Of a stretch of 64,000 bases of DNA, positions 52,923 to 53,036 are shown piece after piece. A model generated the notes under the pieces. The model searched no databases. It worked only from the letters and a program-made list of their open reading frames with translations, and was not told where the DNA came from. The translations under genes and the position numbers were made by a program. The first letter of the stretch is position 1. Every line of letters begins with the position of its first letter. Source of the stretch: Escherichia coli O127:H6 str. E2348/69 (GTDB taxonomy: Bacteria; Pseudomonadota; Gammaproteobacteria; Enterobacterales; Enterobacteriaceae); assembly GCF_000026545.1 (NCBI RefSeq), contig NC_011601.1; one strand, written 5' to 3'.

Positions 52923-53036
52923 GGGGGCTCTGTTGGTTCTCCCGCAACGCTACTCTGTTTACCAGGTCAGGTCCGGAAGGAAGCAGCCAAGGCAGATGAC
53001 GCGTGTGCCGGGATGTAGCTGGCAGGGCCCCCACCC
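52923..53036 (+). ncRNA. ffs: 4.5S RNA, signal recognition particle RNA
   Basis: 114 nt gggggctctgttggttctcccgcaacgc...ggcagggcccccaccc, recognised as E. coli 4.5S RNA, in its expected position between atl and ybaA. Confidence 0.93.

Follow-up and report, generated by a model that had tools for sequence, protein, structure and literature searches.

By scanning the whole of a 64,000-nucleotide stretch of DNA from Escherichia coli O127:H6 str. E2348/69 (hereafter the window) and comparing it with K-12, we find that positions 52923..53036 on the plus strand carry ffs as a functional gene in single copy. [quoted passage not shown] We put the probability of this reading at about 0.99. The gene is the already known textbook one at its canonical locus, and there is nothing new in it. 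Its importance here is one of annotation quality only: an essential gene is missed by a view built on open reading frames (ORFs), which shows two spurious ORFs instead. In this EPEC strain the gene for the SRP RNA is standard, and a neighbouring insertion sequence leaves it intact.

Identity and locus of the 4.5S RNA gene

The 114 nt in question begin with GGGGGCTCTGTTGGTTCTCCCGCAACGC and end with GGCAGGGCCCCCACCC. By direct string comparison and by alignment they are identical at 114/114 positions to ffs of K-12 MG1655 (b0455), listed in record NC_000913.3 as 'signal recognition particle 4.5S RNA' at 476448..476561, likewise 114 nt. This bears out the first-pass annotation, which from the letters had called the same interval a 114-nt E. 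coli 4.5S RNA and had suggested an alignment to K-12 ffs and a search with the Rfam covariance model of the small SRP RNA. Both were run. A scan of the window with the full set of 4227 Rfam families, cut at their gathering thresholds, gave two matches. One is RF00169 (Bacteria_small_SRP) at 52931..53027 on the plus strand, significant at 68.1 bits where the gathering score is 40 (E = 5.5e-13). The match is to the full model (positions 1-97 of 97) and is not truncated. Using the 114-nt sequence as a megablast query, the annotated ffs genes of many E. coli genomes were matched at 100% identity (E = 5e-52). Taken together, the two E values place the match far beyond chance. The gene also shows zero differences when compared to two strains whose flanks differ from the window by ~2%.

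The covariance model covers 97 of the 114 nt of ffs, leaving outside it the extension of the terminal helix, 8 nt at the 5' side and 9 nt at the 3' side. The RefSeq/PGAP annotation of ffs in E2348/69 gives the 97-nt Rfam span only (NZ_LT827011.1 436931..437027, window 52931..53027), and so is shorter than the mature RNA because the model omits the ends of the terminal helix. The 114-nt coordinates 52923..53036 agree with the K-12 annotation of the mature RNA. Over 50700..53100 (2.4 kb) the window and the E2348/69 record agree at 100% identity, and the record annotates the same genes.

The genes on either side of ffs are as follows.

52457..52846, minus strand: atl (ybaZ), alkyltransferase-like, MGMT-family DNA base-flipping protein; an ORF, taken here with the K-12 start, matching PF01035 (E = 3.9e-27)
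53147..53500, plus strand: ybaA (DUF1428); an ORF matching PF07237 (E = 2.3e-48)

The first of these is the upstream, divergent neighbour of ffs and the second its downstream neighbour. In K-12 the gene order is ybaY-ybaZ(atl)-ffs-ybaA-pdeB, and the atl-ffs-ybaA order is the same here. The expectation that ffs would be found between atl and ybaA therefore holds, with both neighbours confirmed by Pfam. When the atl-ybaA intergenic region was aligned to that of K-12, one difference was seen in the 300 bp compared. The title of one report speaks of a prophage integrated at ffs in Enterococcus (PMC12540744). We reject a prophage at ffs here: from the insertion sequence junction through ybaA the window is colinear with K-12, with zero indels.

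Fold and functional sites of the RNA

The 114-nt RNA is predicted to form one long hairpin, imperfectly paired and closed by a GGAA loop, at a minimum free energy (MFE) of -57 kcal/mol, and the MFE and centroid structures are the same. Compared to dinucleotide shuffles the fold has a z-score of -3.15, with 2 of 200 shuffles folding as well. This score is modest since any G+C-rich 114-mer folds well, and the decisive evidence is therefore the covariance model together with the identity to K-12. Three sites can be placed on the hairpin.

52961..52985, plus strand: domain IV core, placed by motifs at their K-12 positions and by internal loops in the predicted fold
52975..52978, plus strand: GGAA tetraloop at RNA positions 53-56; it caps the MFE hairpin and was also found by a motif check
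53003..53009, plus strand: 3' side of the distal region, GUGUGCC (RNA positions 81-87), identical to K-12

The domain IV motifs are at the positions expected from K-12 (ACCA 39-42, AGG 47-49, AGCA 60-63 and CA 66-67), and their nucleotides are unpaired or non-canonical both in the fold and in the Rfam alignment. We take A39-A42 (ACCA) to be the 5' side of the asymmetric loop, A47-G49 (AGG) to be that of the symmetric loop, and AGCA 60-63 to be the 3' side. The core nucleotides of domain IV are presumably the region bound by the Ffh M domain, as known from the crystal structure literature on 4.5S RNA and that domain. For the distal site, we assume the exact nucleotides to be GUGUGCC at RNA positions 81-87.

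The SRP is made up of 4.5S RNA and Ffh, with the RNA being bound by the M domain of Ffh (PMC4737761). Once a ribosome exposes a signal sequence, the tetraloop is where the FtsY NG domain docks first, and at the distal site the Ffh-FtsY NG dimer docks and GTP hydrolysis is triggered (PMC4737761). By identity with K-12, the domain IV internal loops of the E2348/69 RNA would bind the Ffh M domain, and its tetraloop would recruit the receptor FtsY once a ribosome with a signal sequence had been bound. The first-pass annotation had also described the RNA as essential and as acting in co-translational targeting. Both properties are established for K-12 (PMC5499578, PMC4737761), and they carry over to ffs of E2348/69 because the sequence is identical.

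Promoter, transcription start and processing

Within 52400..53300 there is only one promoter-like site, TTGCAA-17-GATAAT, where 0.3 are expected by chance, and its hexamers are identical in K-12. The promoter and the leader that follows it are placed as below.

52862..52890, plus strand: sigma-70 promoter of ffs; -35 TTGCAA at 52862-52867, 17-bp spacer, -10 GATAAT at 52885-52890
52897..52922, plus strand: 5' leader of the primary transcript, ~22-26 nt; placed from the K-12 literature (PMC5499578, PMC7049720) and sequence identity

The start predicted at 7 nt past the -10 hexamer is 52897, which is -26 relative to the first nucleotide of the mature RNA. For K-12 ffs, promoter prediction by Gössringer et al. 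gave starts at -160, -130 and -26, and the 5' ends of 4.5S RNA seen by RNA-seq fell for the most part at -26, others being at ~-153 and ~-127 (PMC5499578). Our predicted start at -26 agrees with these published 5' ends. The leader of the precursor was 22 nt in an earlier study, as given in the same paper (PMC5499578). In K-12 the product is a stable RNA of ~114 nt, the precursor is processed by RNase P, 4.5S RNA is essential, and forms that are extended at the 5' end keep cells viable (PMC5499578, PMC7049720).

Since the window is the same as K-12 over the leader and promoter stretch, we infer that the K-12 facts on promoter and processing apply here. Transcription from the sigma-70 promoter would begin mainly at -26 (52897), RNase P would cut off the 5' leader so that the mature RNA begins with G1 at 52923, and the 3' end would be trimmed to ...CACCC at 53036. 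A simple pattern scan found no intrinsic terminator downstream of ffs. One terminator-like match at 52914..52928 was dismissed: it straddles the 5' end of the RNA, and the count equals the chance expectation of 0.9.

Annotations of the atl start are in conflict, with K-12 ybaZ being 129 aa and PGAP giving 103 aa in E2348/69 and in other strains. The K-12 start is located 76 bp before ffs +1. Taking this start, the minor upstream ffs starts (-127 and -153) lie inside the coding sequence of atl, and on the opposite strand the promoter of atl has to overlap with the promoter/leader region of ffs.

The ISEc13 insertion and its possible effect on ffs

An insertion sequence lies on the other side of atl, with the following parts.

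50893..52442, plus strand: ISEc13 (IS4 family), 1550 bp; bounds from comparison with the empty site in K-12
51058..52431, plus strand: ISEc13 transposase, Tn5-like, 457 aa; RefSeq 'IS4-like element ISEc13 family transposase'
50885..50892 (left) and 52443..52450 (right), no strand: 8-bp target-site duplication CCGCCCGG, the two copies identical

The transposase contains PF14706 (Tnp_DNA_bind, the Tn5-type DNA-binding domain at the N-terminus, 70.1 bits) and PF01609 (DDE_Tnp_1, 32.1 bits), and its match to the Tn5 dimerisation family PF02281 is below threshold (24.1 bits, cut-off 26.7). The element has terminal inverted repeats, which match each other exactly over their outermost 9 bp. Inside the left end, 50905..50930 form a perfect hairpin with 11-nt arms and a 4-nt loop, and inside the right end, 52410..52440 hold a 13-nt palindrome, GTCTCTTGATCAG/CTGATCAAGAGAC, with a 5-nt spacer, overlapping the stop codon of the transposase. 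These hairpins could block incoming read-through or serve as a terminator.

ISEc13 is inserted in the loop of an intergenic hairpin between ybaY and atl, AACCCTCTCC-GCCC-GGAGAGGGTT. K-12 has this hairpin in one piece (3460..3485 of the K-12 locus). The hairpin is likely a bidirectional terminator between the convergent genes. Its arms, at 50876..50892 and 52443..52459, are now 1.5 kb apart, and deleting ISEc13 with one copy of CCGCCCGG restores the K-12 hairpin sequence.

Of the 5426 complete E. coli genomes, 13 have the insertion at the same site, with the same 8-bp duplication and orientation, and so the idea that it is unique to E2348/69 was rejected. In seven of the 13 it is the sole match to the element. 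When the copies of strains RM14723 and A25 were compared to that of the window, 31 of 1550 nt were different, about the same 2% as in the flanks. The ORF is intact in this comparison, with 17-24 synonymous and 5-8 non-synonymous codon changes and a rough dN/dS of 0.07-0.15. These figures suggest either an old copy that was passed on by vertical descent and may still be under constraint, or an insertion hot spot with later recombination. Given the same site in divergent lineages, the ~2% divergence, the intact ORF and the dN/dS, the copy at ybaY/atl seems old.

Between the right end of ISEc13 (52442) and ffs +1 there are exactly 480 bases, in line with the distance of about 480 bp from the end of the insertion sequence noted at first pass. 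Being in the ybaY/atl hairpin, the element is separated from ffs by the whole of atl, and the ffs promoter is untouched. ISEc13 is most likely irrelevant to ffs, lying 480 bases upstream and past the 3' end of atl.

The alternative that comes nearest to surviving leaves ffs intact and supposes that ISEc13 alters its expression, through read-through antisense to atl that adds 5'-extended pre-4.5S RNA. The element does split the ybaY/atl hairpin, and its transposase ORF (51058..52431) is on the ffs strand and reads towards atl and ffs. Moreover, K-12 itself has minor 4.5S starts at ~-127 and ~-153, and 5'-extended 4.5S RNA is tolerated (PMC5499578). However, ybaY already points at atl in the ancestral arrangement, so that the topology is not new, and since ybaY ancestrally reads in the same direction an effect of read-through on atl or on pre-4.5S RNA is unlikely. 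The core promoter and leader of ffs are unchanged, 13 genomes, divergent lineages included, maintain the insertion stably, and any effect would add to a strong, dedicated ffs promoter. We therefore regard altered ffs expression as improbable, and prefer a standard ffs that is expressed from its own promoter. It would likewise be a long shot that read-through from ISEc13 lowers Atl and adds 5'-extended pre-4.5S RNA in E2348/69 and the 12 other genomes or, separately, that the old copy has been a long-lived source of ISEc13.

Reading frames across ffs

The first-pass annotation had described ffs as invisible to the ORF track. This is trivially true of a non-coding gene, but the track is not empty here, as two mechanical ORFs overlap ffs. 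Both are on the same plus strand, at 52750..53088 (112 aa) and 52817..52999 (60 aa). One could suppose from the presence of these two frames over ffs, on the strand of the gene itself, that the real gene encodes a protein and that the resemblance to an RNA is secondary. We consider this hardly credible. No Pfam match was found for the 112-aa ORF, and neither the 112-aa nor the 60-aa ORF is annotated in the K-12 or the E2348/69 record; on these grounds the coding reading was rejected. In addition, the 112-aa ORF would have to cross the 5' end of atl, the ffs promoter and the whole of the RNA, and the conservation is fully explained by the match to the RNA model and the identity to K-12.

The second Rfam match in the window is sraA (RF02029) at 33625..33721 on the minus strand, full length, at 105 bits compared to a gathering score of 56 (E = 1.5e-16). 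It is a second non-coding RNA gene in the window, likewise absent from the ORF view.

Copy number of ffs and its partner gene

A match covering the ffs query is present in 5424 of the 5426 complete E. coli genomes, at one place in each, and in 5420 the identity is at least 99%. The window has one copy of ffs, and no second ffs copy, tRNA or tmRNA was found nearby within it. That this is a redundant or decaying extra copy (a pseudogene) with the functional one elsewhere is more remote still than a coding gene, given the one ffs in the window, the one place per genome in all 5424 matched genomes, the identity to the functional K-12 gene and the canonical locus.

The partner gene ffh, which in K-12 is ~2.27 Mb from ffs, occurs once per genome in 5425 of the 5426 genomes of the same collection, and from this it is almost certainly present in E2348/69. 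Two of the 5426 'complete' genomes gave no match to ffs and one gave no match to ffh, and two of the ffs matches are carried by records labelled as plasmids. These cases probably reflect problems of assembly or of replicon labelling.

Comparison with known systems

The element next to atl can be set against Tn5. At the right end of ISEc13 the outermost 19 bp agree at 19/19 with the inside end of Tn5/IS50, CTGTCTCTTGATCAGATCT. At the left end the outermost 19 bp agree at 17/19 with the outside end of Tn5, and at 17/19 with the synthetic mosaic end as well. The ISEc13 transposase is nevertheless clearly a different protein from Tn5 Tnp and a distant relative of it, with a weak score for the dimerisation domain. 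The target duplication made by Tn5 is 9 bp, whereas that of ISEc13 here is 8 bp.

For ffs, the comparisons are with the Rfam family and with K-12. The GGAA tetraloop and the domain IV loops are common to the RF00169 model (clan CL00003) and to the gene described here. K-12 is without ISEc13 between ybaY and atl. At the ffs locus itself, the leader, the spacer to ybaA and everything from -66 through the start of ybaA are identical in the two strains. The nearest substitution is at -67 (52856), upstream of the -35 hexamer, where E2348/69 has A and K-12 has G.
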